From Acidobacteriota bacterium (lineage in GTDB: Bacteria; Acidobacteriota; Vicinamibacteria; Vicinamibacterales; CAVVIG01), in assembly GCA_003222395.1 (NCBI GenBank), contig QHWB01000034.1, forward strand, positions 67,460 through 131,459: a DNA stretch of 64,000 bases. The letters are read 5' to 3'. Every line of letters starts with the position of its first letter. Within the stretch, counting starts at the first letter, position 1. Shown here one piece after another: positions 642-49,406 of this stretch. The translations under genes and the position numbers were made by a program. The notes under the pieces were generated by a model. That model saw nothing but the letters and a program-made list of their open reading frames with translations, made no database searches and had not been told where the DNA came from.

Positions 642-1835
642 GTGAACCCCGCGCTGGCGACGTACGAGCTGACGAAGGATTATGCCGTCGGCTTCTGGCG
701 CAAGCGCCCGTACCGCGCCCTCGATCGCCTGACGCTCGAAGTCGAATCCGGCGACGTGTTCGGCTTTCTCGGACCGAACGGCGCCGGCAAGACCACGACG
801 CTGAAGCTCCTGATGCGGCTGGTGTTTCCAACCTCCGGCCGCGCCGAGATTTTTGGCCGCCCGGTCGGGGATGTCGGCGTGAAGCGGCGCTTCGGCTACC
901 TTCCCGAAAATCCGTACTTCTATGACTATCTGACCGCCGAGGAGCTGCTCCGATATTTCGCGCGGCTCTTCGGTTTTTCCGCCGCCGAAAGTCGCGCGCG
1001 TGCCAGCCGTCTGCTCGACGAGGTCGGCATCGAGCGCGAGCGATCGATGCAGCTGCGGAAGTTCTCGAAGGGAATGCTTCAGCGCGTCGGGATCGCGCAG
1101 GCGCTCGTCAACGATCCCGACCTCGTGATCTTCGACGAGCCGATGTCGGGTCTCGATCCGCTCGGACGCCGTGACGTCCGCTCGCTCATTCTGAGGCTTC
1201 GCGACCGCGGCTGCACGGTCTTCTTCAGCTCGCACGTGCTGAGCGACGCCGAAGCGTTGTGCAACCGCGTCGCGATCCTCGCCAGAGGGCGTCTGGTCGC
1301 GACCGGGAAGCTCACCGACATCCTCGCGTTCCGTGCGCGCGGATGGGAGTTGGTTGTCAGCGACGCGCCCGCGCGAATCGTCACCGCGCTCGGACCGCGC
1401 GCGCGCCGCATCGTGCAGATCAGCGAAGGGCGGTACATGCTGGATCTGCCGCTCGATCCGCCGCCCGAACGGCTATTGGCGGAGCTCACGACCGCCGGCG
1501 CACACCTCGTCTCGCTGAATCCGATTCGAGACACGCTCGAGGACTTCTTCGTCGAGCGCGTCACAGCTCCCCACCCCATGTCGGCGGACCACCGTCCGGC
1601 GCCGAGTGAGAGCGAGCGGGGGTGGGAGGCGACGAGTGAAGAGCGCCTGCGGCCCGAGCGAGGCGCCGGAGGGGACCGCGGCGCAGCCGCGGCGCCGAGT
1701 GAGAGCGAGCGGGGGTTGGAGGCGACGAGTGAAGAGCGCCTGCGGCCCGAGCGAGGCGCCGGAGGGGACCGCGGCGCAGCCGCGGCGCCGAGTGAGAGCG
1801 AGCGGGGGTGGGGCCCCGCGAGCAGTAAGAAATGA
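642..1835 (+). CDS. ABC transporter ATP-binding protein with repeat-encoded C-terminal tail
   Basis: Walker A GPNGAGKTT, signature-like FSKGMLQRV, Walker B LVIFDEP. The last ~80 aa are encoded by a 93-bp tandem repeat. ATGA overlap with the next gene. Confidence 0.9.
   Translation: MNPALATYELTKDYAVGFWRKRPYRALDRLTLEVESGDVFGFLGPNGAGKTTTLKLLMRLVFPTSGRAEIFGRPVGDVGVKRRFGYLPENPYFYDYLTAEELLRYFARLFGFSAAESRARASRLLDEVGIERERSMQLRKFSKGMLQRVGIAQALVNDPDLVIFDEPMSGLDPLGRRDVRSLILRLRDRGCTVFFSSHVLSDAEALCNRVAILARGRLVATGKLTDILAFRARGWELVVSDAPARIVTALGPRARRIVQISEGRYMLDLPLDPPPERLLAELTTAGAHLVSLNPIRDTLEDFFVERVTAPHPMSADHRPAPSESERGWEATSEERLRPERGAGGDRGAAAAPSESERGLEATSEERLRPERGAGGDRGAAAAPSESERGWGPASSKK
1599..1830 (+). repeat. 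93-bp tandem repeat (2 full + 1 partial copy) of family-A element, inside the ABC ATPase ORF
   Basis: Unit starts at 1599, 1692 and 1785. Copies 1 and 2 differ at one base. The last copy ends with the full core GGGGGTGGGGCCCCGCGAGC, then AGTAAGAAATG. Confidence 0.9.
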
Positions 1836-2638
1836 AGGCGACCCTCGCCATCGCCGTCAATGTGTTCCGCGAGTCGGTGCGGGACAAGATCCTGTACAAC
1901 CTCGTCCTGTTCGCGATTCTGATGATCGGCGCTTCGTACGTGATCGGTCAGCTGACTGCCGGCCAGGACGTCAAGATCATCAAGGACCTCGGGCTCGCAG
2001 CCACGACGCTATTCGGGCTGTTCATCGCCGTGTTCATCGGCATCGGCCTCGTGTCCAAGGAAGTCGAGCGACGCAGCATCTACAGTCTCCTCTCGAAGCC
2101 GATTCACCGGTACCAGTTCGTCCTCGGCAAGTACGCGGGGTTGGTGCTGACTCTGGTCGTGAACATCCTGGTGATGGCCGCGGCGCTCTATGCGGTGCTG
2201 GCGTACATGCGCTGGGGGATTGAGCCCTCGATCGAACGCGCCTGGGACGCGCCTGCACTCGACCCGGCACTCCTCACAGCGGTGCTGCTCATCCTGCTCG
2301 AGCTGATGCTCGTCACGGCAATCGCGTTGTTCTTCTCCACGTTTTCGACGCCGCTGCTGTCGGCGGCCTTCACGTTCGGGATCACAATCGCTGGCCATTT
2401 CAGCCGCGATCTCCGGAACTTCCACGACGTCGTCGAATCGCGCGTCGCACAAACCATCGCGCGCGGCGCGTACTGGGTGCTGCCCAACCTCGAACCCTTC
2501 GACGTCAAAGCGCAGGTCGTTCACGGCCAGCATGTGACGGCCGGGTACGTCGCGCTCGTTGCGGCGTACGGCGTCGTCTACATCGGCATCCTGCTCGTGA
2601 TTGCGACGTTCGTGTTCTCGCGGCGAGACTTCAAGTAA
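1832..2638 (+). CDS. ABC-2 type transporter permease
   Basis: 268 aa with multiple hydrophobic helices. Coupled to the ATPase (ATGA) and to the next gene (TAATG). Confidence 0.8.
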   Translation: MKATLAIAVNVFRESVRDKILYNLVLFAILMIGASYVIGQLTAGQDVKIIKDLGLAATTLFGLFIAVFIGIGLVSKEVERRSIYSLLSKPIHRYQFVLGKYAGLVLTLVVNILVMAAALYAVLAYMRWGIEPSIERAWDAPALDPALLTAVLLILLELMLVTAIALFFSTFSTPLLSAAFTFGITIAGHFSRDLRNFHDVVESRVAQTIARGAYWVLPNLEPFDVKAQVVHGQHVTAGYVALVAAYGVVYIGILLVIATFVFSRRDFK

Positions 2639-3594
2639 TGAAGCGTGCGAGCGCCTGGCCGATCGTCGGCATCATCGCCGTCGTCGTCGTGCTGACGGCG
2701 GTTGCCGCGCAGCTTCAGGCGGCGCGCGAGCGCTGGTTTCCGCCGCCTCCCGTCGAGGACGATGCGCTGTACATCGACTCCGGATCCGCGCTGAAGCGGT
2801 TGACCGTCTCGTTCGACACGCTGGCGGCCGATGTCTATTGGATTCGGGCGATTCAGTATTACGGCAGCACGAAGCGGCGGCTGGCGTCGCAGATCTCAGG
2901 GCCGGAGCCGCCCGCGATGATTGCCGATAGGTCGGATTACCGCAACCTCTACCAGCTGCTCGACTTGACGACGTCGCTCGATTCCCGGTTCGACATCGCC
3001 TATCGATTCGGCGCCGTGTTCCTCGCAGAAGGGTACCCGAGTGGTCCCGGGAGCCCGGACCTGGCGATTCGGCTCCTGGAGAAAGGTTTACGCGAACGAC
3101 CCGATAAATGGCAGTACATGCAGGATATCGGGTTCGTCCGCTACTGGTACCAACGGGACTATCGCGGCGCCGCCGAATGGTTCCGGAGAGCAAGCGAAGT
3201 CCCCGGGGCGCCAATCTGGCTGAAGCCGCTTGCGGCGACGACGGTGGCGCAGGGCGGCGATCGACGGTCGTCGCGCGTCATGTGGCTCGCCATTCTTCAA
3301 TCCGCCGACGTCGACTGGCTGCGCCAACAGGCCGAGCGGCGGTTGGTGCAGCTTCGCGCGCTCGACGACATCGACGAGCTGCAGCGCGCCGTCGATATGT
3401 ATTCGGAACGGAACGGCGCGAGGCCGAGCGACTGGATGACGCTCGTTCGCGCGCGCGTGCTCCGGGCCGTGCCCGCCGATCCCACCGGTGTGCTCTACGA
3501 ACTGACCACCGACGGCCGCGTGCGGCTTTCGCAGTCGTCGACGTTGTTTCCCTTGCCCTCGGAGCCGGCGCAGGTCGCGCCGGCGATCCGATGA
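2638..3594 (+). CDS. membrane-anchored TPR-like protein of unknown function
   Basis: N-terminal TM helix (IVGIIAVVVVLTAVAA) and helical-repeat-like composition. Translationally coupled on both sides. Confidence 0.6.
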   Translation: MKRASAWPIVGIIAVVVVLTAVAAQLQAARERWFPPPPVEDDALYIDSGSALKRLTVSFDTLAADVYWIRAIQYYGSTKRRLASQISGPEPPAMIADRSDYRNLYQLLDLTTSLDSRFDIAYRFGAVFLAEGYPSGPGSPDLAIRLLEKGLRERPDKWQYMQDIGFVRYWYQRDYRGAAEWFRRASEVPGAPIWLKPLAATTVAQGGDRRSSRVMWLAILQSADVDWLRQQAERRLVQLRALDDIDELQRAVDMYSERNGARPSDWMTLVRARVLRAVPADPTGVLYELTTDGRVRLSQSSTLFPLPSEPAQVAPAIR

Positions 3595-4364
3595 TTCCGG
3601 ACTGGGTGCTGATCGTCCTCGCGACCGTGCTGGGCGCGGCGATCGGCAGCTTCCTCAACGTGTGCATCTACCGATTGCCACGAGAGATGTCCGTCGCGTG
3701 GCCGCCCTCTTCCTGTCCGCACTGTGGGCAGACGCTCGCATGGTACGAGAACATTCCGATCGCGGCGTATCTGGCGCTCGGCGGGCACTGCCGCACGTGC
3801 CGCAATCGGATCGGTGCGCGATATCCGATCGTGGAAGCCGTCACTGCCGCGATGTTTGCAATCGCATGCTGGTATTACGGTCCAGGGCTCCTGTTGGTGT
3901 CCCGTCTCGTGCTGGGTTGCGCGCTCATCGTCCTCTTCGCTGTCGATCTCGAGCATCATCTGTTGCCGAACGCGATCACGCTTCCCGGCATTGTCGTCGG
4001 CTTCGCCTTCAGCTTGTTCATCGCGCCAGGATGGGTCGACTCGCTGCTCGGTATCGCGCTCGGCGGCGGCAGCCTGCTCGCGATGTTCTACGGGTGGCTC
4101 TGGCTGCGAGGCGAAGAAGCGCTCGGCATGGGCGATCCGAAGATGCTGGCGATGATCGGGGCGTTCGTCGGATGGAGGATGACGCTGCTGACGCTGGTGT
4201 TCGCGTCGTTCATCGGTTCGTTGATTGGCGTGGCGTTGATCGTCACGGGGCGCGGCGATCGCAAATCGATGGTCCCGTTCGGCTGCTTCCTCGCGCTCGG
4301 CGCGGTGGTCGCCATCGCGGCCGGTCGCGAAATTCTCGACTGGTACCTCGGGACGTTCGCATGA
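3591..4364 (+). CDS. pilD: prepilin peptidase (A24 family)
   Basis: Start chosen at ATG 3591 (ATGA overlap); the track ORF 3108 is an over-extension. Cys motifs CPHCGQ..CRTCRN and the conserved GMGDPKMLAMIGAFVGW motif. Confidence 0.9.
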   Translation: MIPDWVLIVLATVLGAAIGSFLNVCIYRLPREMSVAWPPSSCPHCGQTLAWYENIPIAAYLALGGHCRTCRNRIGARYPIVEAVTAAMFAIACWYYGPGLLLVSRLVLGCALIVLFAVDLEHHLLPNAITLPGIVVGFAFSLFIAPGWVDSLLGIALGGGSLLAMFYGWLWLRGEEALGMGDPKMLAMIGAFVGWRMTLLTLVFASFIGSLIGVALIVTGRGDRKSMVPFGCFLALGAVVAIAAGREILDWYLGTFA

Positions 4365-5629
4365 GGCTGACGCCAGGCGCCTACGCATTGCTTGGCTTGA
4401 CAGCGCTTGTGGCGGCGCTCGTCACCATTCTCACGTTCGCGCTCATGAAGTTCATGGCAGCGGCGCGCGACGCGCGCCGGTCGCTCGGGTCGTCGAGCGG
4501 CGCCGAGACTGCGCTGTTGTCGGCCGCGCTCCAGGAAGCCGTCACCAACCTCAAAGCCCGGGAGCGGGCCACGGCCGCGCGCGCGGATGCGTCAGAACGG
4601 CTTGCGGGCGAGATCGTGTCGAGCCTCACCGCCGGCCTGCTCGTCATCGGGCTCGACGGCGAAATCCGCATTCTCAACCCTGCGGGTCGCCGGATGTTGG
4701 ATCTCGCCGACGATGCACCGCCGGAGCAGATCGAGCGATCGCTGAAAGAGCTGACGCTGACCGAAGTCGTCGACGAATGTGTGACGACCGGCACTGCCGT
4801 CGTCCGGCGCTCCGTCACACTGCCGGAGCCGCGGCACGGCGTCTCGCATGTCGGCGTGACGGTTTCACCGCTGTTCGACGACCGCAGCGAACTGCACGGC
4901 GCGATTTGCCTCTTCACCGATCTGACCGCGGTCAAGGATCTCGAAGAGCAGCTTCGCCTGAAGGACAGCCTCGCGGCCGTCGGCGAGCTGACGGCCGGCA
5001 TCGCGCACGAGTTCCGCAACGGTCTCGCGACCATTCACGGGTACAGCAAGCTGTTCGATTTGAAGGCCCTCCCCGACTCCTACCGGGCGTACGTCGAAGG
5101 CATCCGCGCCGAAGCCGAATCGCTCGGACAGGTCGTCACGAACTTTCTCAACTTTGCGCGGCCGGCGCAGCTCGTGCTGTCGAACGTGGATCTCCGGAGC
5201 ATCTGCGAGCGCGCAGTGGAGGAGATTCGAACCGACGCGCGCGCGCTCGGCGGCGACATCGAGATTCGCGGAGAGTTTGCGCTCGTCGACGGAGACGAAG
5301 TGCTGCTGCGCCAGGCGCTCAGCAACCTCCTGCGGAACGCGGTCGAAGCGTGCGCGGGGTCGTCGACCGTCCCGCGGATCGTCGTGCAGTCGGAGGTCGA
5401 TCGTCAGCAGCGGCTGATGAAAGTGGCCGTCAACGACAACGGACCGGGCATCGCGCCCGCCTTGCGCGAGCGCATATTCCGTCCGTTCTTCACGTCCAAA
5501 CGCAACGGCACCGGCCTCGGACTCGCGCTCGTACAGAAGATCGTGGTCTTTCACAACGGCCGCATCGTCGCCGGCGTCTCGCCGGAGGGCGGTGCGAGCC
5601 TCCAGGTCACGTTGCCGACGACCAAGTAG
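4361..5629 (+). CDS. sensor histidine kinase (TM + PAS-like + HisKA + HATPase)
   Basis: Start at ATG 4361 (ATGA overlap with pilD). H-box GIAHEFRNGLATIHGY; N/G boxes LLRNAVEA, DNGPGI, GTGLGLA. Confidence 0.9.
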   Translation: MRLTPGAYALLGLTALVAALVTILTFALMKFMAAARDARRSLGSSSGAETALLSAALQEAVTNLKARERATAARADASERLAGEIVSSLTAGLLVIGLDGEIRILNPAGRRMLDLADDAPPEQIERSLKELTLTEVVDECVTTGTAVVRRSVTLPEPRHGVSHVGVTVSPLFDDRSELHGAICLFTDLTAVKDLEEQLRLKDSLAAVGELTAGIAHEFRNGLATIHGYSKLFDLKALPDSYRAYVEGIRAEAESLGQVVTNFLNFARPAQLVLSNVDLRSICERAVEEIRTDARALGGDIEIRGEFALVDGDEVLLRQALSNLLRNAVEACAGSSTVPRIVVQSEVDRQQRLMKVAVNDNGPGIAPALRERIFRPFFTSKRNGTGLGLALVQKIVVFHNGRIVAGVSPEGGASLQVTLPTTK

Positions 5630-5641
5630 CGCATTCCAGTA

Positions 5642-5660
5642 CTGTTACTGAACGTAACAG
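5642..5660. promoter_or_regulatory. perfect inverted repeat CTGTTAC-N5-GTAACAG (candidate enhancer-binding site or kinase-gene terminator stem)
   Basis: 7-bp arms with a 5-nt spacer, ~120 bp upstream of the sigma54-like motif. No U-tract follows. Confidence 0.35.
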
Positions 5661-5768
5661 AACGCCTCACGTGCACATCGCGTCAGGGCACGTCCGCCAC
5701 TCCGGATCATCCAGCAAACCACGCGTAGTCAGCACGTTGCCGGAGCTCCATGGCCGATCATCCTTCAA

Positions 5769-5784
5769 TGGCAGAGGCATTGCT
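5769..5784 (+). promoter_or_regulatory. candidate sigma54 (-24/-12) promoter upstream of the minor-pilin operon
   Basis: TGGCAG-aggca-TTGCT matches TGGCAC-N5-TTGCW with one mismatch. It lies 20 nt upstream of ATG 5804, so the leader would be only ~9 nt, which lowers confidence. Confidence 0.4.
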
Positions 5785-5803
5785 CAGTTCGAGGTATCAA
5801 GTC

Positions 5804-6403
5804 ATGCGAGCCCCGAACCAACGCTTCAGCGGCACACGCGGCTTCACGCTCATCGACATGGTCGCGACGATCGCGATCATCGGCACGCTCCTGGCGATTT
5901 CGGTGCCGCAGCTGATCGACGTGGTCGACGGCTACCGCCTCGGCATGGCGACGCGCGTCGTCGAGCGCGAGCTCCAGTTCGCGAAGCTCAAAGCGGTGTC
6001 GGCCGAATCGCCGATGCGCGTGCGGTTCAATTGCCCGGTCGCGAGGCAGGTCCGCGTCGTGGAACTGATCGGCACGTCGGCCGTGCCGAACGCGAACGAC
6101 GCGGACAACTATACCGATCGGTGCAAGGAAACGATTTACCCGTACAAGGCGACCGGATCCGACACGAGCCGGTTGACGAAACCGAACAACGACGGACCGG
6201 TGCGCTACCTCGATAGCAGCGTCACGATCACGACGTCGAAGACGATCGAATTCTGGCCCGACGGAACGGCGCACATCGATACCAACGCCGGCAATCCGTG
6301 GCCGGCAGCCGGCAATCCTGGCGTGACGATCACGCTGACCCGAAAAGGGAAAACCAAAAACATCGTGGTGAATGGCCTTGGCAAGATTCAAATGGATCGC
6401 TAG
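5804..6403 (+). CDS. prepilin-type minor pilin, GspH/FimT-like
   Basis: Prepilin cleavage/methylation motif G|FTLIDMVATIAIIGTL after a short basic leader. The alternative upstream ATG at 5750 cannot be excluded. Confidence 0.75.
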   Translation: MRAPNQRFSGTRGFTLIDMVATIAIIGTLLAISVPQLIDVVDGYRLGMATRVVERELQFAKLKAVSAESPMRVRFNCPVARQVRVVELIGTSAVPNANDADNYTDRCKETIYPYKATGSDTSRLTKPNNDGPVRYLDSSVTITTSKTIEFWPDGTAHIDTNAGNPWPAAGNPGVTITLTRKGKTKNIVVNGLGKIQMDR

Positions 6404-7004
6404 ACGCGCGCCGGCTCCGGGCGCCGAAGCTCCCGGAACGAGCGAAGGCGGCTTCTCACTCGTCGAGACGATCATCGCCTCGAGCGTCATGATGGCCGGC
6501 GTCATCACGCTTGCGCAGCTGTTCGTCATGTCGACGCGCACGAACGTCGCGGCGAAATCGACGTCGATCGCGGCGGTGCTGGCGCAGCAGAAGATGGAGC
6601 AGCTTCGGTCGCTCGAGTGGGGCTTCGACGCGCTCGGCCTTCCCAACACCGATACGACGACGAATACGGCCGTCGTGCCGATGGCGGCCAATGGCGGAAC
6701 GGGCCTCAGTCCTTCGCCGACCGGCGCCGGCAACCCGTTGAAAGCGAACGTCGCCGGCTGGGTCGATTACGTCGACAGGTACGGCAACTCGCTCGGCGGC
6801 GGTACCACGACGCCGCCCGCCGGCACGTCGTACATCCGGCGGTGGTCGGTCGAGCCGCTGCCGACCAATCCGAACAACACGATCGTCCTGCAGGTGCTCG
6901 TGACGCCGATGGGACTGCGTACGGCCGACGACAACACCGACAGCGTCCGGCGCAAGGATCAGGAAGCGCGGATTATCAGCGTGAAGACGCGAAAGGCGAG
7001 CTGA
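6372..7004 (+). CDS. prepilin-type minor pilin, PilV-like
   Basis: G|FSLVETIIASSVMMAG N-terminal methylation motif and its position in the minor-pilin operon. Confidence 0.7.
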   Translation: MALARFKWIARRAPAPGAEAPGTSEGGFSLVETIIASSVMMAGVITLAQLFVMSTRTNVAAKSTSIAAVLAQQKMEQLRSLEWGFDALGLPNTDTTTNTAVVPMAANGGTGLSPSPTGAGNPLKANVAGWVDYVDRYGNSLGGGTTTPPAGTSYIRRWSVEPLPTNPNNTIVLQVLVTPMGLRTADDNTDSVRRKDQEARIISVKTRKAS

Positions 7005-8272
7005 TGCGGCGCGAACACGGTTTTTCGATCCTGGAAATGATCGTCTCGATGGGCGTCATGCTCGCCGTCACCGGCGGCATCTTCGCCGTCATGAACCCGT
7101 CGCAGGGCACGTTCCAAACGCAGACGGAGGTATCCGATCTGCAGCAGCGCCTTCGCGTCGCGAGTGACACGCTTTACAAGGACCTCGTCATGGGAGGCGG
7201 TGGCGCGTACCAGGGATCGATGTCCGGTTCGCTGAATTATGCGTTCGCCGCGATCGTCCCGTTTCGCAGTGGCGCAGTCGGCCAGGATCCACCGGGTACG
7301 TTCAAGACCGACACGATCACCATCACGTACGTTCCGCCGACGGTCGCGCAGACGACGCTCTCGGACAATCCGGGCAACAGCCTGACGAATTCAGCGGAGA
7401 CCAAGGTCAATGCGGAAGCGGGTTGTCCCGCGGGCGATTTGCTGTGCGGCTTCAAAGAAGGGATGACGTTGCTGATCTACGACTCGACCGGCCATTCCGA
7501 CACGTTCACGGTCACGCAGATCCAGGACATCAACGCCAACAACGTCAAGCTCCAGCATAACAGTGACCAGCTGGCCTACGAATTCCTGGCCGATTGTTCG
7601 ACCCAGCCGGCTCCAAATCCGTGTGGCTCGACGAAGATCGTCCAGGCGGCCAGCTACAGCTATTACCTGAAGACCGACGCGCTCAACAAGACCGGTCAGT
7701 TGATGTTCTACGACGGGGGAATCGGTGCCGACGTGCCCGTCGTCGACAACGTCGTCGGGCTCACGTTCAAGTACTACGGCGATCCGCAGCCACCGCAGTT
7801 GAATGGCAATCCGTTGTCGAACACCATCGGCCCATGGACGACCTATGGTCCGACGCCGCCGGCGCTCGGCACCCAGGTGAAAGACCACAACAACAACGCC
7901 GCCGACGGCTGGGCGGCTGGTGAGAACTGCGTCTTCAGGATGGACAATGGCCAGCAAGTGCCACGTCTGCCCGTCCTCGGCGCTGGCGGCACGACGACGA
8001 CGCTGGTCGAGTTGACGCAGGCGATGTTGACCGACGGCCCGTGGTGTCCCGGCGGGCCGAACGGAGCGATCGGGAACGCGTGGGATGCCGACCTTCTGCG
8101 CGTCCGCAAAGTGGCCGTGACGATCCGCGTCCAGTCCGCGAACGCCGCGCTGCGGGGGCCGGCGAGCGCGTTGTTCACGAACGGCGGCACCTCGAAAGAG
8201 GGCAGCAAGTGGCTGCCCGATCAACAGGTGACGTTCAGCGTGTCGCCGCGCAACTTGAACCTGGGCAGGTAA
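7004..8272 (+). CDS. prepilin-type minor pilin, PilW-like
   Basis: Start at ATG 7004 (TGATG junction); track ORF 6617 is over-extended. HG|FSILEMIVSMGVMLAV motif. Size is ~420 aa. Confidence 0.7.
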   Translation: MRREHGFSILEMIVSMGVMLAVTGGIFAVMNPSQGTFQTQTEVSDLQQRLRVASDTLYKDLVMGGGGAYQGSMSGSLNYAFAAIVPFRSGAVGQDPPGTFKTDTITITYVPPTVAQTTLSDNPGNSLTNSAETKVNAEAGCPAGDLLCGFKEGMTLLIYDSTGHSDTFTVTQIQDINANNVKLQHNSDQLAYEFLADCSTQPAPNPCGSTKIVQAASYSYYLKTDALNKTGQLMFYDGGIGADVPVVDNVVGLTFKYYGDPQPPQLNGNPLSNTIGPWTTYGPTPPALGTQVKDHNNNAADGWAAGENCVFRMDNGQQVPRLPVLGAGGTTTTLVELTQAMLTDGPWCPGGPNGAIGNAWDADLLRVRKVAVTIRVQSANAALRGPASALFTNGGTSKEGSKWLPDQQVTFSVSPRNLNLGR

Positions 8273-8276
8273 CGCA

Positions 8277-9092
8277 ATGAGCCGTATAGCCGGGGTCGGT
8301 CAAGTGGGGATGAACATGCGACGCGAAGACGGAATCGCGATGATCGTCGCGCTGATGGCGATGCTGCTGATGTCGGCGCTTGGAGCGGCGCTCGTAATGA
8401 CCACGACGTCGGAGACGATTATCGCCGGCAACTTCTCGCGCGGTCAGGAAGGGCTGTACGCGGCCGATGCGGCGTTCGAGCGCGCGATGGACGATTTGCT
8501 GACCGTACCCGACTGGAACAAGCTGCTCGACGGAACGACGCAGTCGGCGTTCATCGATGGAGGGCCGAGCGGCGATCGCGTACTTCCTGATGGATCGCAC
8601 CTCGACATCGGCGCCGCGCTCAACATGGCCAACTGCGGCAAGACCAGCGATTGCTCGCCCTCCGATCTGACGGGGAATGCCACCGGCACTCGTCCGTGGG
8701 GCGCGAACAACCCGGTCTGGCGTGCGTACGCGTACGGGCCGCTGGTCAACATCCTGCCGACGGGGACGATCAACTCGAACTGGTACGTGATGGTGATGGT
8801 CGCCGACGATCCGTCGGAGAACGACGGCGATCCGCTGCACGACGGCACCAACGGCGGCAATCTTGGCACCGGCGTCCTCGCCATGCGCGCCGAAGCGTTC
8901 GGACCGCGCGGCGCGCACAAGATCATCGAGATGACGGTCGCCAGAACGAATACGACGAACCTGGAGCGCGGCTATACCGGACAGCGCGGCGAGGACGAGC
9001 AGAACCGCCGCGCCCGCAAGGCCGCCGTGCAGACGCCCGGCAAGTCGCTCACGATGCAATCGATGACGCTGAACTCAGGAGGAATCCAGTAG
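8277..9092 (+). CDS. PilX-like pilus assembly protein
   Basis: N-terminal hydrophobic segment IAMIVALMAMLLMSALGAALVMTTTSETIIAGN, typical of the PilX N-terminal domain. The true start may be ATG 8310 or 8316. Confidence 0.65.
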   Translation: MSRIAGVGQVGMNMRREDGIAMIVALMAMLLMSALGAALVMTTTSETIIAGNFSRGQEGLYAADAAFERAMDDLLTVPDWNKLLDGTTQSAFIDGGPSGDRVLPDGSHLDIGAALNMANCGKTSDCSPSDLTGNATGTRPWGANNPVWRAYAYGPLVNILPTGTINSNWYVMVMVADDPSENDGDPLHDGTNGGNLGTGVLAMRAEAFGPRGAHKIIEMTVARTNTTNLERGYTGQRGEDEQNRRARKAAVQTPGKSLTMQSMTLNSGGIQ

Positions 9093-9114
9093 CGCCTCGC
9101 GCTACGCGACACAT

Positions 9115-12546: not shown

Positions 12547-12575
12547 GCGCGGCGCAGGATTCCTGAAAGCACGCA

Positions 12576-13478: not shown

Positions 13479-13540
13479 CCTTGACCGTCCTCAGGGGGTC
13501 ACGTACGATCGAGTTGCGGCCGATAAATTCTGTGAAAGTC

Positions 13541-14125
13541 ATGCCCTTCCGATTCCTCGTCGTCGTTGTCCTGATGTCGCTGGCCGCGGGCCGCGCGGCC
13601 GTCGTGTCGGCGCAGTCGCTCGCCGACCTTGCGAAAAAGGAAGAAGAACGGCGCAAAGAGATGAAGGGGCCGACCAAGGTCATCACGAACAAGGATCTCG
13701 CGCCCGTTCCCAGCGGATCGACGCCGGCACCGGCCGACGGCGCAGCGGTGCCCGCCACTCCGGCACCGGGCGGTGCGGCGAAGGACGCGAAAGGCGCCAA
13801 AGACGCGAAAGACGAGAAGGACGCCAAGGCCAACGAGCCGGGAAAGGACAAGGCCTATTGGGCAGGCCGCCTCAAAGGGCTCCAGGAGACGCTCGACCGC
13901 GACCAGACGTACGCCGACGCGTTGCAGAGCCGCATCAATGCTCTCACTACCGACTTCGTGAACCGCGCCGATCCGGCGCAGCGCTCCGTTATCGAGCGCG
14001 ACCGCCAGCGATCGCTCGCCGAGCTGGCCAAGCTCAAAGAACAGATCCAGAAGGACAAGAAGGCTCTCGCCGACCTCGACGAAGAAGCGCGCCGCGCGGG
14101 CGTTCCGCCCGGCTGGCTGCGGTGA
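13541..14125 (+). CDS. secreted coiled-coil protein, unknown function
   Basis: Start moved to ATG 13541, giving signal peptide MPFRFLVVVVLMSLAAGRAAVVSAQS. Lys/Ala-rich linker and coiled-coil C-terminus. Confidence 0.6.
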   Translation: MPFRFLVVVVLMSLAAGRAAVVSAQSLADLAKKEEERRKEMKGPTKVITNKDLAPVPSGSTPAPADGAAVPATPAPGGAAKDAKGAKDAKDEKDAKANEPGKDKAYWAGRLKGLQETLDRDQTYADALQSRINALTTDFVNRADPAQRSVIERDRQRSLAELAKLKEQIQKDKKALADLDEEARRAGVPPGWLR

Positions 14126-16778: not shown

Positions 16779-16934
16779 GTGGCGACGTTCTGTCCGGAAC
16801 ACGCGCGAGCGGTTCATCGCGTGAGCGAGTCAGCGACGTAGGCGCGGTGTGGCGACGTTCTGTTCTAGATACGCCCGAGCGCAGCGCCGGCGGCCAAGCG
16901 AGCGGGGGTGGGGCCCCGCGAGCCCAAGGAAATG
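16779..16934 (+). repeat. family-A element (duplicated 5' module + core) upstream of nadB
   Basis: GTGGCGACGTTCTGT occurs at 16779 and 16849. The core AGCGAGCGGGGGTGGGGCCCCGCGAGC is followed by CCAAGGAAATG. Confidence 0.85.
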
Positions 16935-16973: not shown

Positions 16974-18558
<1,585 letters not shown>

Positions 18559-32398: not shown

Positions 32399-32430
32399 CT
32401 GCGGGTACCTCCACGGACGCCCCAGTCAAC

Positions 32431-32530
32431 GCTGTTGTGCTCGCGGGTCCCACCCGCTCGCTCTCGCTGCGGCGCTCGCTTTCATCACGACGGCCGCAGG
32501 CGCTACCAGATGCGCCGTATAACCAAAAAC
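32431..32530 (-). repeat. family-A element between truB and rpsO
   Basis: The reverse complement reads ..AGCGCCTGCGGCC..GAGAGCGAGCGGGTGGGACCCGCGAGCACAACAG. Confidence 0.75.
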
Positions 32531-32555
32531 TTCTTAGTCGAGCAAGATCAACATG

Positions 32556-35442: not shown

Positions 35443-35453
35443 CAGTAATGCAA

Positions 35454-35811: not shown

Positions 35812-35820
35812 TGTCTTATT

Positions 35821-35972
35821 CGCGGCGGAGCCCCACCCCCGCCGCGCTGGCGCGCTCGTGACTTTTCCTCTGCTCGCGGGGCCCCACCCCCGCTCGCCCT
35901 CGCTCGCGCATTCGCGCTCGCTCCAGCCGCAGGCGCTCCCCTCGCGCATATCCAGAACAGAACGTCACCACG
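35821..35972 (-). repeat. family-A element (full copy + second core) between infB and DUF503
   Basis: The reverse complement reads GGTGACGTTCTGTTCTGGATATGCGCGAGGGGAGCGCCTGCGGCTGGAGCGAGCG..GGGCGAGCGGGGGTGGGGCCCCGCGAGCAGAGGAAAAG..GGCGGGGGTGGGGCTCCGCCGCGAATAAGACAATG. Confidence 0.85.
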
Positions 35973-36014
35973 TTATCAAGATCGGACTGTCTTCGTGGTT
36001 CGTGTCTTCGTGGC

Positions 36015-44393: not shown

Positions 44394-45413
44394 TTACTTC
44401 AACTCATCGATGTGGGCGCCGAGGAGCTCGTTGAGCCGTGCGAAGCGTGCGTACTTCTGAAGATTGTCGCGCACGTAGCGGAGCGTTCGCGGAGTGTACT
44501 GGATGTAGACCGGATTCCGGCGCGTCATCGTCTGGAAACCGAACGTGCCCAGCGCCTTGAGATTGCGTTGCACGGCCATCAGGTCGAACCGGCGGCGGAA
44601 GTCTTCGTCGTCCGCGCGACGCTTGAGCGCGAGAAAGTACGCGATCAGCTCGTCGAGCTCGCGGTCGGTGACGTCAACGTACGAATCGCGCAGCAACGAC
44701 ACGAGATCGTATGTGTCAGGTCCCATCCGCGCATCCTGGAAATCGATGATGTAGAGGCTGCCGTCGTGCAGCATCAAGTTGCGGCTGTGATAGTCGCGAT
44801 GGCACAGCACACGCGGCTCGGAGGCGAGCTCCTGCACGATCGCCGCCCATTCGGCATCAAGCGCGTCGCGCTCGGCTGCGCCGAACGGCGACGCGCGATA
44901 GCCTTCGACGAAGTGCTTCGCGAAGAAATTCAGCTCCCATGTCAGCTTGTCGACGTCGAACGCAATCGTGTACGGGACGTAGCGATCGGACTGCAGCTCG
45001 GCGCCGCGCCGCTGCAGCTGCTCGATCAATGAAACGGCCTGACGATACAACGCCGCGTGCTCGGTTGCCGACGCCGCGCCAAGATGCGCCTGCAGCGTGA
45101 CGTCACCGAGATCCTGGAGCGCAAGGATGCCGAGCTCGTCGGAGTGGCCGAGCACGACCGGCACCGGCAGCGACATCTGCTGCAGCAGGTCGGCGACGTT
45201 GGCGAAAGGGAGTGCCGCGAACTCGATCGATCCGGCATGCAGCGCGAGCACGAACCCTGGGCCGCCGGACGGGATTATGCGGAAGTACCTGCGGTCCGAC
45301 GCATCGCCGGTCAGCGGAACGACGCGCGCGCGCTCATCCGCGAGACCGCTATCCCGGAGATAACGGGTGATCCGATCGCGCAGTTGCAGGCCGTCAGCCG
45401 TTCGCTGGTCCAT
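44394..45413 (-). CDS. aminoglycoside-phosphotransferase-fold kinase (sugar anomeric kinase-like)
   Basis: Start moved to ATG 45413 because the upstream part of the track ORF is repeat sequence. APH-fold motifs CHRDYHSRNLM and IIDFQDARMGP. Confidence 0.75.
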   Translation of the reverse strand: MDQRTADGLQLRDRITRYLRDSGLADERARVVPLTGDASDRRYFRIIPSGGPGFVLALHAGSIEFAALPFANVADLLQQMSLPVPVVLGHSDELGILALQDLGDVTLQAHLGAASATEHAALYRQAVSLIEQLQRRGAELQSDRYVPYTIAFDVDKLTWELNFFAKHFVEGYRASPFGAAERDALDAEWAAIVQELASEPRVLCHRDYHSRNLMLHDGSLYIIDFQDARMGPDTYDLVSLLRDSYVDVTDRELDELIAYFLALKRRADDEDFRRRFDLMAVQRNLKALGTFGFQTMTRRNPVYIQYTPRTLRYVRDNLQKYARFARLNELLGAHIDELK

Positions 45414-45423
45414 TTCGTGCTTT

Positions 45424-45545
45424 GTGCGCGGGCGCCCCACCTGTTCACGGCGTCCGGGGCCCACCCCGGACGCTCTCGCTCGCGCGTTGCGCTCGCTCGG
45501 GCTCAAGGCTGCCGCGCACCTGTCGCTGCTCGCTCGCGGCGGCGG
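45424..45545 (-). repeat. family-A element (diverged) between the nucleotidyltransferase and kinase genes
   Basis: The reverse complement reads ..GAGCGAGCGCAACGCGCGAGCGAGAGCGTCCGGGGTGGGCCCCGGACGCC..GCACGAAATG. Confidence 0.7.
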
Positions 45546-46466: not shown

Positions 46467-46470
46467 GCGG

Positions 46471-47034: not shown

Positions 47035-47943
47035 TTAACTCCCAAGTCTCTGAAACATCAATCGAACAAACACATACATCGTGAAGCACTCGAGCGCGAA
47101 CGGAGGGAAGCCCAGGTAGCCGGGCAGCGGCATCTCGAAAACTTTCCAGTCTTCCATGATCGGAACGGTGTAGTGCCATTTCGCTTCGGCCCAGAAGTTC
47201 CACATTTCCCAGAGCACGCCGCACAGCAATCCGCTGCCGAGGAGATCGGCGGTCCGATGACGATCGGCCATCAGCGTGGCGCCGCCGAGCCGAAAATTGA
47301 TCGGATCGAGCAGAAAGATGAACCCGAGCCACACCGGCGCCGCGAGATACCTTGCAACGTCGCGGGAGACGAGAAAGGGCACGAGCAACATAGCTGTCCC
47401 GATCGCGATGGACAGGGAGCGCCCGCGGCTCGAGCAAGGCGCGGGGTGGCCCGCCGGAGGGAACGTTCTCCGTCCGTCTCCTGCCGCTGTGGCCCCTCCC
47501 GCCGCTCCGGCCTCTCCCGCCGGTCCGGCCCATCCCGCCCCTCCTGCCCGTCCCGCCCCTCCTGCCCGTCCCGCCCAGACAGAGATCAGATCGGCTCCCT
47601 CGAAGATCGCGGGCCATATTGTCGCGAACGACCAGGCGTAGCCGAACATCCGGAGAAACCAGTTCTCCGGAAGGCCAGTGTAGTACCAGTTCCGGATAAT
47701 CAGGTTGTAGCCTTCGAACACAATCCAGAGCGGAATGGAAAGGATCGCGAGCAGCGCGAACTCGCGCGGCGACGATCGCATCCACGATCGGCCGCGCGCG
47801 CGGTACACGATGGTGTCGGCGAAGAGGATGAAGCCAGTCCAGCAGATCGGTGTATTCCACGAATAGAACGGCTCGATGCGCGCGATCGTCGCCGCTTCGG
47901 ACACGATCATGATGGCGAGGCCGGCGACGGCCGCTGCGCTCAT
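47035..47943 (-). CDS. polytopic membrane protein of unknown function with repeat-encoded Gly/Ala loop
   Basis: Multiple Trp/Phe-rich TM segments. The central loop AGRAGGAGRAGGAGWAGPAGEAG is encoded by an 18-bp tandem repeat. ATGA overlap with the upstream gene. Confidence 0.6.
   Translation of the reverse strand: MSAAAVAGLAIMIVSEAATIARIEPFYSWNTPICWTGFILFADTIVYRARGRSWMRSSPREFALLAILSIPLWIVFEGYNLIIRNWYYTGLPENWFLRMFGYAWSFATIWPAIFEGADLISVWAGRAGGAGRAGGAGWAGPAGEAGAAGGATAAGDGRRTFPPAGHPAPCSSRGRSLSIAIGTAMLLVPFLVSRDVARYLAAPVWLGFIFLLDPINFRLGGATLMADRHRTADLLGSGLLCGVLWEMWNFWAEAKWHYTVPIMEDWKVFEMPLPGYLGFPPFALECFTMYVFVRLMFQRLGS
47415..47580. repeat. diverged family-A fragment (opposite orientation to gene) plus 18-bp tandem repeat
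   Basis: The plus strand reads AGCGCCCGCGGCTCGAGCAAGGCGCGGGGTGGCCCGCC. TCCCGCCCCTCCTGCCCG repeats at 47533, 47551 and, partially, 47569. Confidence 0.7.
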
Positions 47944-49406
47944 GTGACGCGCATCCTGTACGAACAGCCCATGAGCGATGGAGTGCCGACGTTCTTTCCC
48001 AGGATCAGGACCTTGTGACTGCTGCCGAGGCCTCCTGGCATCAGCAGCGTTCTGAGGGCAGCGTTCCGCTTCAAATCCGCGCGAGCGGTACTTTTCTCCA
48101 TTGCGGCAGGGATCCCATCCCCGACGCTGCTGCTCGACCCGTTCGCGCCTCGCAATGGCTCGAGGCTGCCGCTCGCCGACGAGCCCGCATTTTTCAACGC
48201 TCGCGGGGTTCCACCCCCGCTCGCGTCGCTCGTGCCCTCGCGCTCGCTCGAGCCGCGGGCGCTGCTCTCGCGCGTATGTAGAAAAGTGCGTCGCAGTCGA
48301 TCGTCACTTTGCAGAAGGCCAAGCAAAAAGTACGTCTGATCGAGAAATCCGAGGATTGTGAGGCCTTCGGCTTCGGCCGCTCGGCGAACCGACGTGAAAT
48401 CGACGTGCGCGGTGATGTCCTGCCCGCCGGCACTCTGCAACCACGCGGGCGCATCGGGCCGCAGCTCCGAGCCCGCGCTGTGATGGCCGTAGAACGTTGT
48501 GAGCGTTCCGGCAGAATGCGACGCGGAGTAGAGCTCGCGCGCCTCGTGGCCGTAATCGATCACGATGATGAAACCGCGCCGCAGCCGGCGCGCCGCGTCC
48601 CGGATCCATTCGACTGCGCGCAGATTGACTTCGACGCGCCATCCGGGTTCGAGACGCGCGGCGATGCTATCGAGATATTCGGCTAGTGCCGGTGTCGAAG
48701 GCGGACCCTCGACAGTCGTCAGTCGCCAGTCGTCGGTCGTCGGTCGCGACGACTGCTGATCGCCGACTGCTGACTGAAGACTGATGACTGGTGACTGAGG
48801 ATCGATGACTGACGACTGATGACTGACATATATTTCCCGTAATCCGTCCGTCCGCATGACGACCTGATGCACGGGCAACGCGTCGAGCAGCTCGTTGGCG
48901 ACGAGCACCCCTTCGAACGACGCGGGCAGCGATGATTCGGAAGATGTCAGTCGATCGGCGACCTCGGCGAGCATCGCACGTTGAGCGCCGCGTGCGGCGG
49001 CGCTGGCTTCGACGAGGTGCAGGCGAATCCGGGCGTAGAAGCCTGGATGCTCGCGCGTCGCGGCGCGAAGGATGTCCGTCGAGAGGCGGGCATTTCCGGC
49101 GCCGGCTTCGACGAGATCGAAGGGCCGAGCGAGCTCGCCCCGCAGGCCGGATTCTGCTGCGAGCAAGCGGAACATTTCCTCGATCTGGACTTCGAGGAGC
49201 TCGCCGAAGAGCGGACCGATATCGACGCTCGTAAGAAAATCGCCCGCGCGGCCGGATCGTTGGGGCGCGCGGGCGTAGTAGCCGAGCTCGGGATCGTAAA
49301 GCGCCAGCTCCATGAACGCGGCCACCGTCAGTGGACCGCGCTGGCGAACGCGCTGCGCGAGTCGGGATTCGGGATTTGGGATTCGGGATTCGAGAGGCGT
49401 CGTCAC
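47940..49406 (-). CDS. MidA/NDUFAF7-like SAM-dependent methyltransferase (DUF185) with three repeat-derived segments
   Basis: N-terminus GPLTVAAFMELALYDPELGYYA, ANELLDALPVHQV, and GFIIVIDYGH. GTG start at 49406 lies in the loop of a hairpin repeat. Confidence 0.75.
   Translation of the reverse strand: MTTPLESRIPNPESRLAQRVRQRGPLTVAAFMELALYDPELGYYARAPQRSGRAGDFLTSVDIGPLFGELLEVQIEEMFRLLAAESGLRGELARPFDLVEAGAGNARLSTDILRAATREHPGFYARIRLHLVEASAAARGAQRAMLAEVADRLTSSESSLPASFEGVLVANELLDALPVHQVVMRTDGLREIYVSHQSSVIDPQSPVISLQSAVGDQQSSRPTTDDWRLTTVEGPPSTPALAEYLDSIAARLEPGWRVEVNLRAVEWIRDAARRLRRGFIIVIDYGHEARELYSASHSAGTLTTFYGHHSAGSELRPDAPAWLQSAGGQDITAHVDFTSVRRAAEAEGLTILGFLDQTYFLLGLLQSDDRLRRTFLHTRESSARGSSEREGTSDASGGGTPRALKNAGSSASGSLEPLRGANGSSSSVGDGIPAAMEKSTARADLKRNAALRTLLMPGGLGSSHKVLILGKNVGTPSLMGCSYRMRVT
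48188..48296 (-). repeat. family-A element in-frame inside the MidA-like gene
   Basis: The reverse complement reads GCGACGCACTTTTCTACATACGCGCGAGAGCAGCGCCCGCGGCTCGAGCGAGCG..GACGCGAGCGGGGGTGGAACCCCGCGAGCGTTGAAAAATG. Confidence 0.8.
48712..48830. repeat. family-B heptamer-repeat hairpin in-frame inside the MidA-like gene
   Basis: The right arm is GACTGAT|GACTGGT|GACTGAG|GATCGAT|GACTGAC|GACTGAT|GACTGAC. The left arm is CAGTCGT-type units. CAGTCGTCAGTC (48713) is complementary to GACTGACGACTG (48807). Confidence 0.8.

Follow-up and report, generated by a model that had tools for sequence, protein, structure and literature searches.

The described systems most similar to the repeats analysed here are the REP/REPIN elements and their RAYT partners (TnpA-REP, HUH-Y1), including the class 3 'REPtron-like' systems of Acidobacteria and Planctomycetes (Quentin et al. 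2018, PMC6006769). REPs are described there as species-specific, and class 3 HUH-Y1 genes accompanied by atypical hairpins in high copy number are reported from Acidobacteria (PMC6006769). A second comparable group is formed by the mycobacterial interspersed repetitive units, or MIRUs (Supply et al. 1997), for which we draw on the summary given in PMC3184786. Analysis of a 64-kb stretch of acidobacterial DNA (hereafter the window) revealed a small, modular, one-directional interspersed repeat family with units of about 55-170 nt. The family is specific to a single order of soil Acidobacteria, the Vicinamibacterales (Acidobacteriota subdivision 6). It is a previously undescribed hairpin repeat family, of a kind of bacterial "junk" repeat that is already known.

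Units are built in one order. The 5' modules are optional; they are followed by an A-GCGCCTGCGGC motif, a variable hairpin, a core hairpin and, 3' of the core, a tail of 8-11 nt that is rich in A. Allowing up to 3 mismatches, the core sequence (GCGGGGGTGGGGCCCCGC) was found 6 times in the window versus 0.25 expected, a count reached by 0/100 shuffles. The 5' motif of each unit (AGCGCCTGCGGC) was found 12 times with at most 1 mismatch versus 1.8 expected, 8 of the 12 lying within reported loci, and the AT-richer 5' module (GACGTTCTGTTCTRGATA) twice (16854 and 35949) versus 0.03 expected. A covariance model built from 72 hairpin variants, all from other genomes, was run on the window with filters off and detected 8 hairpins at E<0.05; the next match was not below E=0.6. 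These hairpins start at 1796, 16896 and 18245 on the plus strand and at 32425, 35807, 35858, 45436 and 48185 on the minus strand. The matches therefore confirmed seven of the eight loci that an earlier note on this DNA had listed, on the strands first described, including both cores assigned to the locus at 35.8 kb. At the eighth (47415), the 5' motif and a short hairpin are present but the core was not detected by the model; with AGCGCCCGCGGC followed by GCGGGGTGGCCCGC, this locus is probably a degenerate copy. The tandem array reported near the left end extends over 1597-1812 with a period of 93 bp (2.3 copies, 98% matches). By the gene calls and the covariance model, 7 of the 8 loci have the G-rich strand as their sense strand, as first described. 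The copies are:

1597..1834, plus strand: head-to-tail array, two 93-bp units and then a complete terminal core
1597-1689 and 1690-1782, plus strand: the two array units, with truncated cores; 5' motifs at 1642-1653 and 1735-1746
1798-1823, plus strand: terminal complete core of the array; tail at 1824-1834
16779..16934, plus strand: full copy, between the divergent aroB and nadB; 5' modules of the GACGTTCTGT type at two places (diverged near 16781, exact at 16854-16871), 5' motif 16883-16894, exact core 16898-16923, tail 16924-16934
18229..18281, plus strand: short copy within nadB, lacking the middle hairpin; motif 18232-18243, core 18247-18272, tail GATGAAATG
32431..32504, minus strand: 74-nt copy (AGCGCC...GCGAGCACAACAGC) between truB and rpsO, with a shortened core, GCGGG/TGGGA/CCCGC
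35812..35971, minus strand: composite copy between infB and DUF503; 5' module 35949-35966, 5' motif 35926-35937, middle hairpin, exact first core 35872-35897 with tail 35858-35871, second core of the GCGGCGGGG..CCGCCGC subtype at about 35821-35846 with tail gaataagaca
45414..45545, minus strand: diverged composite copy of the CAGCCTTGAGCC subfamily; model match 45436-45475, degenerate second hairpin and A-rich tail
47415..47455, plus strand: short, probably degenerate copy; motif 47418-47429, then the hairpin
48185..48296, minus strand: intragenic copy; 5' module-like part 48270-48296, motif 48252-48263, core GCGAGCGGGGGTGGAACCCCGCGAGC at 48199-48224, tail GTTGAAAAATG

Several copies abut or enter genes. 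The ABC ATPase ORF (642-1835) runs through the entire array, about 80 codons, and stops at TGA 1833-1835, with the ABC-2 permease ATG at 1832. The DUF503 ATG (35809-35811) directly follows the second tail of the composite copy, and the diverged copy at 45414..45545 ends at the ATG of an APH-family kinase (45411-45413). Codon-usage gene calls gave the same starts at 1832, 35811 and 45413 that had been said to coincide with the end of the element, and the DUF503 start also matches the orthologous start in L123. The 12-codon uORF that opens at the tail ATG 16932 and ends 3 nt 5' of the nadB ATG reads as claimed. The nadB copy contributes in-frame codons (..ERLPPDRRGWGPASDEM..) to the linker that joins the FAD-binding domain to the C-terminal one, and the copy at 48185..48296 is translated in frame (..EREGTSDASGGGTPRALKNAG..) in a Methyltransf_28 protein, C-terminal to the Pfam domain (residues 50-327). 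Only the probably degenerate copy at 47415..47455 is antisense to the local ORF (47035-47943, minus strand, no Pfam match).

The limits of the element were defined by aligning 122 exact-core instances from 120 loci, in which conserved ends were seen on both sides: information content is at background upstream of the A before GCGCC and past tail position +11. The tail has the consensus A.TRARAAA, often leads into ATG or a Shine-Dalgarno-like GAGGA stretch, and measures 8-9 nt as read from tandem junctions. The earlier note had made a terminal GAAATG the end of the element; conservation stops at +11, and ATG stands at +9 in only 35% of copies. Self-pairing had likewise been put too narrowly, at GCGGGG/CCCCGC: the core forms a stem of 10 positions that includes a tandem G.A and has an invariant GGGG/GTGGGG/CCCC top above a lower stem that covaries. 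Five lower-stem pairs are changed on both sides (variants include GCGAT/ATCGC, GCCGT/ACGGC and GCGGC/GCCGC), giving 86 compensatory cells versus 39 in shuffles, a count matched by 0/500 shuffles; slid registers collapse. The core variant of the 45414..45545 copy (GCGTCCGGGG/TGGG/CCCCGGACGC) is fully Watson-Crick, and the layout of its subfamily recurs in L015, L075, L077 and L120. In the middle hairpin the tandem G.A is replaced by C-G/G-C, both sides changing together; the 64-nt subtype has fully covarying tips of 7 bp, and an additional 5' helix covaries (TGCYG with CRGCA). The 5'-foot tetranucleotide of the hairpin differs by subfamily (GCGA 122, TCGA 6, GTAG 5, GCAG 4 and GTTC 5, of 178), GTAG, the canonical REP foot, being carried by one minor subfamily. 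Many copies lack the 5' parts, and many are truncated or degenerate. G.U is not in excess of A.C in the stem, so that RNA and DNA structure cannot be distinguished on this basis.

Copies are not confined to the window: at least 62 Vicinamibacterales assemblies carry the exact 24-nt core, which was detected in at least 120 stretches. Orthologous sites in relatives are empty or differently filled; such sites gain, lose and exchange units and amplify them in tandem, even among strains of one species. The 32431..32504 copy lies within the conserved leader of rpsO (S15), as an insertion in its variable apical hairpin. An element is found at this leader in the window, L121 and L122, whereas L123 and L124 (..ccggt|gtgaactgg..; TruB identity 81%) and most of about 65 other orthologous leaders have an empty site; L128, L143 and L148 carry different core-like remnants at the same spot. 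The infB-DUF503 spacer is 14 nt long, with no element, in L123 and L124 versus 203 nt in the window. The rpsJ-rplC junction is a TAATG stop/start overlap in L057 versus an element in L080 and L095; the rplB-rpsS junction has an element in L057 and none in L085; and the aroB-nadB spacer of L004 has none. The in-frame intragenic copies proved real: beside the read-through of the ABC ATPase, in window NadB the interdomain linker is longer by about 19-30 residues than in the L004 ortholog. Among contigs with an identical permease, the ABC ATPase array varies by one 93-bp unit (ATPase of 366 or 397 aa), and one-core and two-core alleles are found upstream of DUF503 among contigs with an identical DUF503 protein.

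Copies usually lie just 5' of start codons, and their orientation is not random. Between co-directional genes, 64 copies are sense and 14 antisense (p=9e-9); the sense:antisense ratio is 54:7 within 100 nt of the next start and 10:7 beyond 100 nt (Fisher p=0.01). At compact operon junctions the entire stop-to-start gap is the element. The tail holds or directly precedes the starts of rplC, rplT, rpmA, rplD and pth (identified by family match) and of rpsS and rpmI (assigned by eye on the sequence). Position and orientation statistics suggest that the tail may provide the ribosome-binding region for the following gene. The proposal that the element is a portable translation-initiation region receives only indirect support, from the bias near starts and the filled junction gaps.

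We consider it fairly probable that the family is a REP/MIRU-like non-autonomous mobile repeat whose hairpins are copied in trans and whose insertions are filtered by selection near starts. A non-autonomous mobile element tolerated in ORFs had already been suggested, and is supported by the turnover of sites and by the in-frame copies. None of the outcomes that the earlier note had named as speaking against its readings was observed. The hairpins would probably be copied as single-stranded DNA by an enzyme acting in trans from a gene elsewhere in the genome. An HUH-Y1 nuclease (RAYT or IS200/IS605-like) is the leading candidate, and its specificity would hold the hairpin top identical across the order. 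Selection would filter the insertions: beside a start codon in compact operons only sense copies would survive, their purine-/A-rich tail replacing the ribosome-binding region of the downstream gene, and copies in ORFs would survive where they keep the reading frame and fall in a linker or at the end of the protein. Consistent with HUH-type mobilisation, the two hairpins share a strand, terminal inverted repeats are absent, target sites are not regularly duplicated (flanking repeats of at least 7 nt were not systematic), the 5'-foot tetranucleotide is subfamily-specific, and class 3 HUH-Y1 genes are reported from Acidobacteria (PMC6006769). Counting against mobility of this type, the main family shows neither a GT[AG]G foot nor the inverted doublets typical of REP/REPIN, and 6 of 83 copies are flanked by long direct target duplications (14-80 nt, starting just after the 8-nt tail), which are not expected from HUH transposition. 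No mobilising enzyme was found among the 52 predicted window proteins scanned, none of which has a transposase or integrase domain, as had been stated. Likewise, no HUH-Y1-like ORF was detected by motif in about 1 Mb of DNA or by phmmer in about 1.4 Mb with IS200 and IS608 TnpA queries.

The identical 24-mer, loop included, in at least 62 species-level assemblies could also mean that a host factor reads the hairpin. Under this hypothesis the hairpin and A-rich tail would form a portable cis-acting mRNA element kept for regulating downstream genes. It might be bound by a conserved RNA-binding protein or nuclease, stabilise the 5' end, or serve as a ribosome standby or initiation site; it would have spread through operons, ribosomal-protein ones included, with mobility as the mere route there. 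An invariant loop and upper stem over a covarying lower stem are usual for a hairpin read sequence-specifically, and the strong sense bias close to start codons would be expected. Copies precede highly expressed genes, namely rplC, rplD, rplT, rpmA and pth (family match) and rpsS, rpmI, rplX and the rpsO leader (read from sequence). GGGGGUGG could also pair with the 16S anti-Shine-Dalgarno CCACCUCC, allowing two G.U pairs. We nevertheless regard such a host-serving module as unlikely: orthologous copies are present, absent or swapped for another subfamily even within a species, copies are found within ORFs and antisense, many are truncated or degenerate, and the stem shows no G.U excess. No Rfam family was matched by the core or the element, which also counts against this reading.

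A polar DNA-level signal for replication or segregation, of the KOPS type or a gyrase/nucleoid-protein site with the G-rich strand leading and gene direction secondary, is very improbable. The G-rich strand does flip from plus to minus near 29 kb in the window, at the cumulative GC skew peak, and the 10:7 ratio far from starts is within ordinary gene-replication co-orientation; however, the skew is weak and tracks gene direction, no dif-like site was found, and the bias varies with distance to the next start, which is not the expected behaviour. A 55-170-nt unit with hairpins and an A-rich tail also far exceeds known orienting motifs, and copy turnover within a species misfits an architectural signal. 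Least credible is a retroposed SINE-like repeat, an RNA copy reverse-transcribed into nicked targets, which would explain the A-rich 3' tail, the polarity, the many copies lacking 5' parts and the occasional long target duplications directly after the 8-nt tail, but is opposed by the absence of flanking duplication beyond chance in >90% of copies, by a tail that is a short fixed motif rather than a run of variable length, and by the lack of a reverse transcriptase among the window proteins scanned. No bacterial SINE-like retroposed repeat system is known.

Compared with known mobile repeats, the family resembles the palindrome-associated elements derived from IS200/IS605 (PATE-like minimal elements) in its one-strand hairpins near each end, strict polarity, short conserved stretch from the last hairpin to the right boundary (8-11 nt here) and lack of inverted repeats and target duplication. 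Unlike these, it has no evident target tetranucleotide 5' of the left end, where only A at -1 and a purine bias are seen, and no TnpA or TnpB gene was found for it. As with RPE (Rickettsia palindromic elements), RUP and SPRITE (PMC3184786), copies sit in frame in genes without destroying the protein, here in linkers or at the C-terminus of NadB, the Methyltransf_28 protein and the ABC ATPase; unlike RPE, they are mostly intergenic, point to start codons and differ in lineage and sequence. The likeness to MIRU, by the description summarised in PMC3184786, extends to units of 40-100 bp in polycistronic operon spacers in one orientation relative to flanking genes, tandem arrays with strain-variable unit number, filled and empty orthologous sites, and frames joining the neighbours' stop and start (here ATGA at 1832-1835). 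Against that description, the host phylum is another, the hairpin covaries under an invariant top, several alternative modules exist, copies per kb are far more numerous (8 loci in 64 kb) and occur also within ORFs, and the tetranucleotide direct repeats that the summary reports for MIRU were not seen. Relative to REP, the main family has the foot GCGA instead of GT[AG]G, forms head-to-tail arrays and never the inverted doublets of REPINs, has a longer unit with a sequence-conserved 5' motif and A-rich tail, is strongly sense-oriented beside start codons, keeps its hairpin top and loop identical across at least 62 species where REPs are described as species-specific (PMC6006769), and has no linked RAYT gene in the DNA examined. 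With REP it shares imperfect, GC-rich hairpins of 20-40 nt that occur in high copy number in transcribed spacers between genes, the lack of both terminal inverted repeats and target duplication, a subfamily-specific 5'-foot tetranucleotide that is the canonical GTAG in a minor subfamily, occasional in-frame copies in genes and a mosaic, BIME-like combination of modules.

The G-rich element is an order-wide, modular and polar hairpin repeat with rapid turnover at orthologous sites, variable-number arrays and in-frame readthrough. The earlier note had described eight loci of a directional repeat in the window; direct reading of all eight confirmed that the repeat is real and that its parts follow one another in the order claimed. 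Counts in the window were 6 for the 18-nt core (0.25 expected, up to 3 mismatches allowed), 12 for the 12-nt 5' motif (1.8 expected; 8 of the 12 fall within the reported loci) and 2 for the AT-richer 5' module (0.03 expected). A covariance model of the core, built from 72 hairpin variants from other genomes and run on the window with filters off, detected eight hairpins at E<0.05 and nothing else under E=0.6. The model missed the locus at 47415, which nevertheless has the 5' motif and, after it, a short hairpin.

Element loci in the window, with the starts of covariance-model hairpins (each at E<0.05)
1597-1834, + strand, array, hairpin start 1796
aroB-nadB spacer, + strand, hairpin start 16896
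inside nadB, + strand, hairpin start 18245
rpsO leader, - strand, hairpin start 32425
infB-DUF503 spacer, - strand, hairpin starts 35807 and 35858
upstream of a kinase gene, - strand, hairpin start 45436
47415, 5' motif and short hairpin, missed by the core model
Methyltransf_28 gene, - strand, hairpin start 48185

The array has a period of 93 bp over 1597-1812. Density in the window is about one locus per 8 kb, with 8 covariance-model hairpins in 64 kb. The stretch from 2638 to 14125 is free of copies; a type IV pilus cluster (prepilin peptidase, PilX-like and PilY1-like proteins) lies there together with a histidine kinase and several ORFs without a family match.

The boundaries of the element were read from 122 exact-core instances aligned on the core. 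Conservation downstream of the core follows A.TRARAAA(T/A)G and falls to zero beyond +11, counting from the core end. On the other side, 5' of the motif, conservation is confined to an A at -1 (76 of 83 copies), apart from a preference for purines at -3 and -4, and at tandem junctions the next AGCGCC starts 8-9 nt past the core. The ends are thus AGCGCCTGCGGC on the 5' side and A.TRARAAA on the 3' side, and they are not inverted copies of one another. Unrelated versions of the segment joining the 5' motif to the core exist (types of 43, 52 and 64 nt, among others), every one of which folds as a hairpin. In the common type, tandem G.A mismatches are replaced by C-G/G-C with both strands changing together, and in the 64-nt type the 7-bp tips differ wholly between copies yet remain complementary. 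The commonest middle hairpin is preceded by CCGA. Two optional 5' modules were found, one consisting of GACGTTCTGTTCTAGATA followed by its own hairpin, the other about 55 nt long with a covarying closing helix (TGCYG with CRGCA).

The core hairpin has a stem of 10 positions and an invariant GGGG/GTGGGG/CCCC top. Covariation at the five core pairs below this top amounted to 86 compensatory cells against 39 in shuffles, with none of 500 shuffles as high, and collapsed in slid registers. G.U pairs are no commoner than A.C in this stem, so the pattern fits an RNA and a single-strand DNA structure equally. RNAalifold on the mixed alignment recovered the core hairpin alone because the middle modules are not homologous, and single-sequence fold energies lay only about 1 SD below mononucleotide shuffles; covariation was therefore used as the evidence for structure. 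Among 178 distinct hairpins, the tetranucleotide at the 5' foot was GCGA in 122, TCGA in 6, GTAG in 5, GTTC in 5 and GCAG in 4. It goes by subfamily, GTAG being restricted to one minor subfamily. Core positions 5-12 read GGGGGTGG in every copy (1804-1811 in the window, for example), which is complementary to the 16S anti-Shine-Dalgarno sequence CCACCUCC if two G.U pairs are allowed. The stem takes up half of this stretch, and the tail ATG is about 21 nt away; the match could be a coincidence or a clue to the invariance of the loop.

Scanning one genome per species for the exact 24-mer core GAGCGGGGGTGGGGCCCCGCGAGC matched at least 120 stretches, which belong to at least 62 assemblies. Almost every stretch among the matches listed carries the label Vicinamibacterales, Vicinamibacteria or Acidobacteria subdivision 6. 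In soil, Vicinamibacterales rank with the most abundant bacteria, and almost all of them are uncultured. The core had no match in the viral contigs searched. No Rfam covariance model reached gathering score anywhere in the window, searches around two copies of the element showed nothing relevant at E<=10, and no tRNA or tmRNA gene was found in the window. The searchable literature held no account of the element and nothing on repeats in Vicinamibacter or Luteitalea; the string GGGGTGGGGCCCC turned up in a single paper, an unrelated one on Staphylococcus aureus CRISPR loci.

Comparison of orthologous loci, numbered here as L loci from other genomes and metagenomes, revealed sites that are filled in some relatives and empty or otherwise occupied in others. 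An 8-kb locus (L004) syntenic with 14.2-19.9 kb of the window at about 70-76% nucleotide identity contains neither the aroB-nadB copy nor the copy inside nadB. The NadB protein of the window has extra linker residues, ERLPPDRRGWGPASDEM, which are element-encoded and missing from the L004 ortholog. Further in-frame copies in the window form a C-terminal extension of about 80 aa on the ABC ATPase and follow the domain of the Methyltransf_28 protein. In a second set of 80 metagenome loci anchored on TruB, the infB-DUF503 spacer measures 14 nt in L123 and L124 (81% TruB identity); the window has a two-core composite in a spacer of 203 nt. In the rpsO leader, a 74-nt copy sits exactly in the variable apical hairpin of the window, L121 and L122; the same point is empty in L123 and L124 (..ccggt|gtgaactgg..), and three more distant lineages carry other core-like remnants there. 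At the rpsJ-rplC junction, L057 has a TAATG stop/start overlap, L080 and L095 have full elements with differing middle hairpins, and L085 has an inverted pair of heptamer arrays (cttccag/ctggaag) forming a hairpin in the element's place. The rplB-rpsS junction of L085 reads aagTAAtcATG without an element; that of L057 is filled from stop codon to start codon, the AG of the stop being the element's first two bases. Variation extends to contigs of one species. Contigs with an identical permease differ by exactly one 93-bp unit, so that their ABC ATPase has either 366 or 397 aa, and contigs with an identical DUF503 protein have a one-core or a two-core spacer.

Two of these spacers showed further features. 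The truB-rpsO spacer (window 32399-32555, - strand; L121-L191) is a strongly conserved leader across about 70 loci, with a promoter-like TTGCAT-N17-TAACAT, ACGGCGCATCYGGT, the variable hairpin and CTGGGGCGTYCGTGGAGG just 5' of the GTG start, in that order. It is probably an S15 autoregulatory leader; Rfam returned no match for the window's leader. Downstream of infB, relatives L133, L142, L156 and L173 have a long CACGAAG/CTTCGTG heptamer hairpin. The window (about 35985-36012, - strand) and L122 keep the left arm only (ccacgaagacacgaaccacgaagac), the G-rich element replacing the right arm.

Flanking direct repeats, measured as longest common substrings, were no longer than those of shuffled pairings for more than 90% of copies. 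Local alignment identified long direct target duplications of 14-80 nt, starting right after the 8-nt tail, in 6 of 83 copies, and target-site duplication as a general feature was rejected. Duplicated stretches include the 3'-terminal 63 nt of a gene read as atpG (L005, 1795-1960; L028), the 3'-terminal 80 nt of a thiolase gene (L115, 415-620) and the 5'-terminal 53 nt of a response-regulator gene (L090, 4480-4630); L114 holds another such copy. With each duplication the gene end on one side of the element is whole again, and survivorship may therefore be the reason they are seen. The 3' end of thiolase genes (..ATCTTCGAGCGCCTGTAG) has 8-9 nt in common with the 5' motif (L104, 4840-4870; L115, 504-560), and in L104 the gene end runs straight into the element, which suggests a microhomology junction.

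The earlier note had seen no transposase or integrase in the window, and a scan of 52 window proteins agreed in finding no transposase domain. A motif regex for an HUH-Y1 gene found none in about 1 Mb of six-frame ORFs from 8-kb fragments around matches, nor did phmmer, with IS200 and IS608 TnpA queries, find an HUH-like ORF in about 1.4 Mb of fragments; both negatives say little because fragments rather than whole genomes were scanned. One report (PMC6006769) describes class 3 HUH-Y1 genes in another acidobacterium together with about 600 atypical hairpins. We therefore infer that the element is copied by an enzyme which works in trans and recognises its single-strand hairpins, given that report, the lack of inverted repeats and duplications, the one-strand hairpins and the subfamily-specific foot tetranucleotides, one of which is the REP hallmark GTAG. 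The constancy of the hairpin top in at least 62 assemblies points to a conserved protein partner, a candidate HUH nuclease or RNA-binding factor.

Genes for the orientation analysis were called by codon usage, with training on the same data. The G-rich strand is mostly the sense strand and not randomly placed: between co-directional genes, 64 copies are sense and 14 antisense (p=9e-9). Between opposite-direction genes, 18 copies lie in divergent and 4 in convergent spacers, and copies inside ORFs are sense in 11 cases and antisense in 4. The bias depends on distance to the next start codon, with 54 sense and 7 antisense copies at 100 nt or less and 10 sense and 7 antisense beyond 100 nt (Fisher p=0.01). 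Measured from the core end, the next start codon most often lies 8 nt away (ATG at +9); 35% of copies have ATG at +9 and 56% have TGA or TAA at +3. The ATGA at 1832-1835 of the window overlaps stop and start, and a subset of copies has a tail extended to a Shine-Dalgarno-like AAAGAGGAC. Genes beginning in or just past the tail include rplC, rplD, rplT, rpmA, pth, clpA, nuoH and ruvA, identified by family match, as well as rpsS and rpmI as read from sequence.

The sense bias near start codons would be a survival filter. At overlapping stop and start codons an insertion would break translational coupling, and the downstream gene would stay expressed only if the copy brought an A-rich or Shine-Dalgarno-like tail to its start codon. 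The element would then be a clean natural example of a selfish repeat that seems to persist by carrying a functional ribosome-binding tail, and it would show how compact operons with overlapping stops and starts can be opened up while the downstream gene stays functional.

The main rival explanation is that the hairpin is read at the RNA level by a host factor. The invariance of the loop across at least 62 species favours this explanation; the missing conservation of copies at orthologous sites counts against it. A more elaborate version, which we consider rather improbable, takes the GGGG/GUGGGG/CCCC hairpin and A-rich tail for a domesticated, portable RNA module, spread by transposition into an order-wide post-transcriptional regulon. 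Its reader would be a factor conserved throughout the order, which could be an RNA-binding protein, a nuclease or else the ribosome, by way of the anti-Shine-Dalgarno-complementary GGGGGUGG; translation would be uncoupled or re-initiated, or mRNA stability set, at hundreds of operon junctions, those of ribosomal-protein operons included. A purely replication-linked polarity, as in a replication-terminus or KOPS-like signal, was rejected: the orientation bias varies with distance to the start codon, GC skew is weak and tracks gene direction, and the dif-like site sought in the window is absent.

A repeat at this density in the window matters for assembly and annotation. Runs of N in public assemblies fall exactly at the infB-DUF503 element (L211, about 360-470; L219, about 500-590), which indicates that the repeat breaks or gaps short-read scaffolds. 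The element also lengthens or interrupts predicted proteins, and its length polymorphisms are possible strain markers, like MIRU-VNTR typing in mycobacteria.

Intergenic tandem arrays of 7-9 nt units (among them TCGTCAG, GACTGAT, TCGGGAT, CGAATCC and CAATTTA) are a common feature here and in related genomes, often adjoin the element and resemble cyanobacterial STRR heptamers. They lie at 13778-13824, 35451-35481, 48709-48746, 48765-48826, 49362-49392, 49411-49445 and 56100-56158 of the window and in L011, L017, L044, L045, L046, L085 and L105. At 47468-47576, 18-nt and 9-nt tandem repeats (CTCCCGCCGCTCCGGCCC, 5.4 copies) adjoin the degenerate antisense copy, within a weakly coding ORF (47035-47943, - strand) without a Pfam match. 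Facing arrays of an 8/16-nt unit (ATCGGGTAATTGGATA, complement CCAATTACCCGATTAC) at 63876-63918 and 63963-64000 are cut by the window edge and may be a long inverted repeat.

Among known systems, REP/REPIN-RAYT elements share with this one a short, GC-rich, imperfect, high-copy palindromic hairpin. Their GT[AG]G foot is not that of the main family (GCGA 122/178, GTAG 5/178, GCAG 4/178), and unlike REPIN/BIME copies, which often form inverted pairs, the multi-copy loci are all head-to-tail (window 1597-1834 and 35812-35971; L022, L042, L050, L058, L098, L119, L128 and L150). The hairpins of class 3 HUH-Y1 systems, as portrayed in PMC6006769, are atypical, have a 5' CnGA foot, number hundreds of copies and include some flanking the class 3 gene; the element's core foot reads nCGA instead of CnGA, CCGA precedes its commonest middle hairpin, and its copy number is high. 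MITEs have terminal inverted repeats and a fixed-length target-site duplication, and the element has neither. Minimal elements of the IS200/IS605 type likewise have subterminal hairpins on one strand, no inverted repeats and no duplication, and insert 3' of a fixed tetra- or pentanucleotide; the 5' flank here shows an A at -1 (76/83) and a purine bias, with no fixed target. With neither the foot nor the inverted doublets of a classical REP, no MITE hallmarks and no Rfam match, the element is filed under small interspersed repeats rather than a named family. RPEs resemble it in their in-frame copies within conserved protein genes. Mycobacterium MIRUs are oriented operon-spacer units, tandem and variable in number, with stop/start-overlapping ORFs (PMC3184786), and the likeness is one of behaviour only; homology is unlikely given the host phylum and base composition. 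MIRU is thus the closest system in behaviour, and REP/RAYT the closest in likely mechanism.
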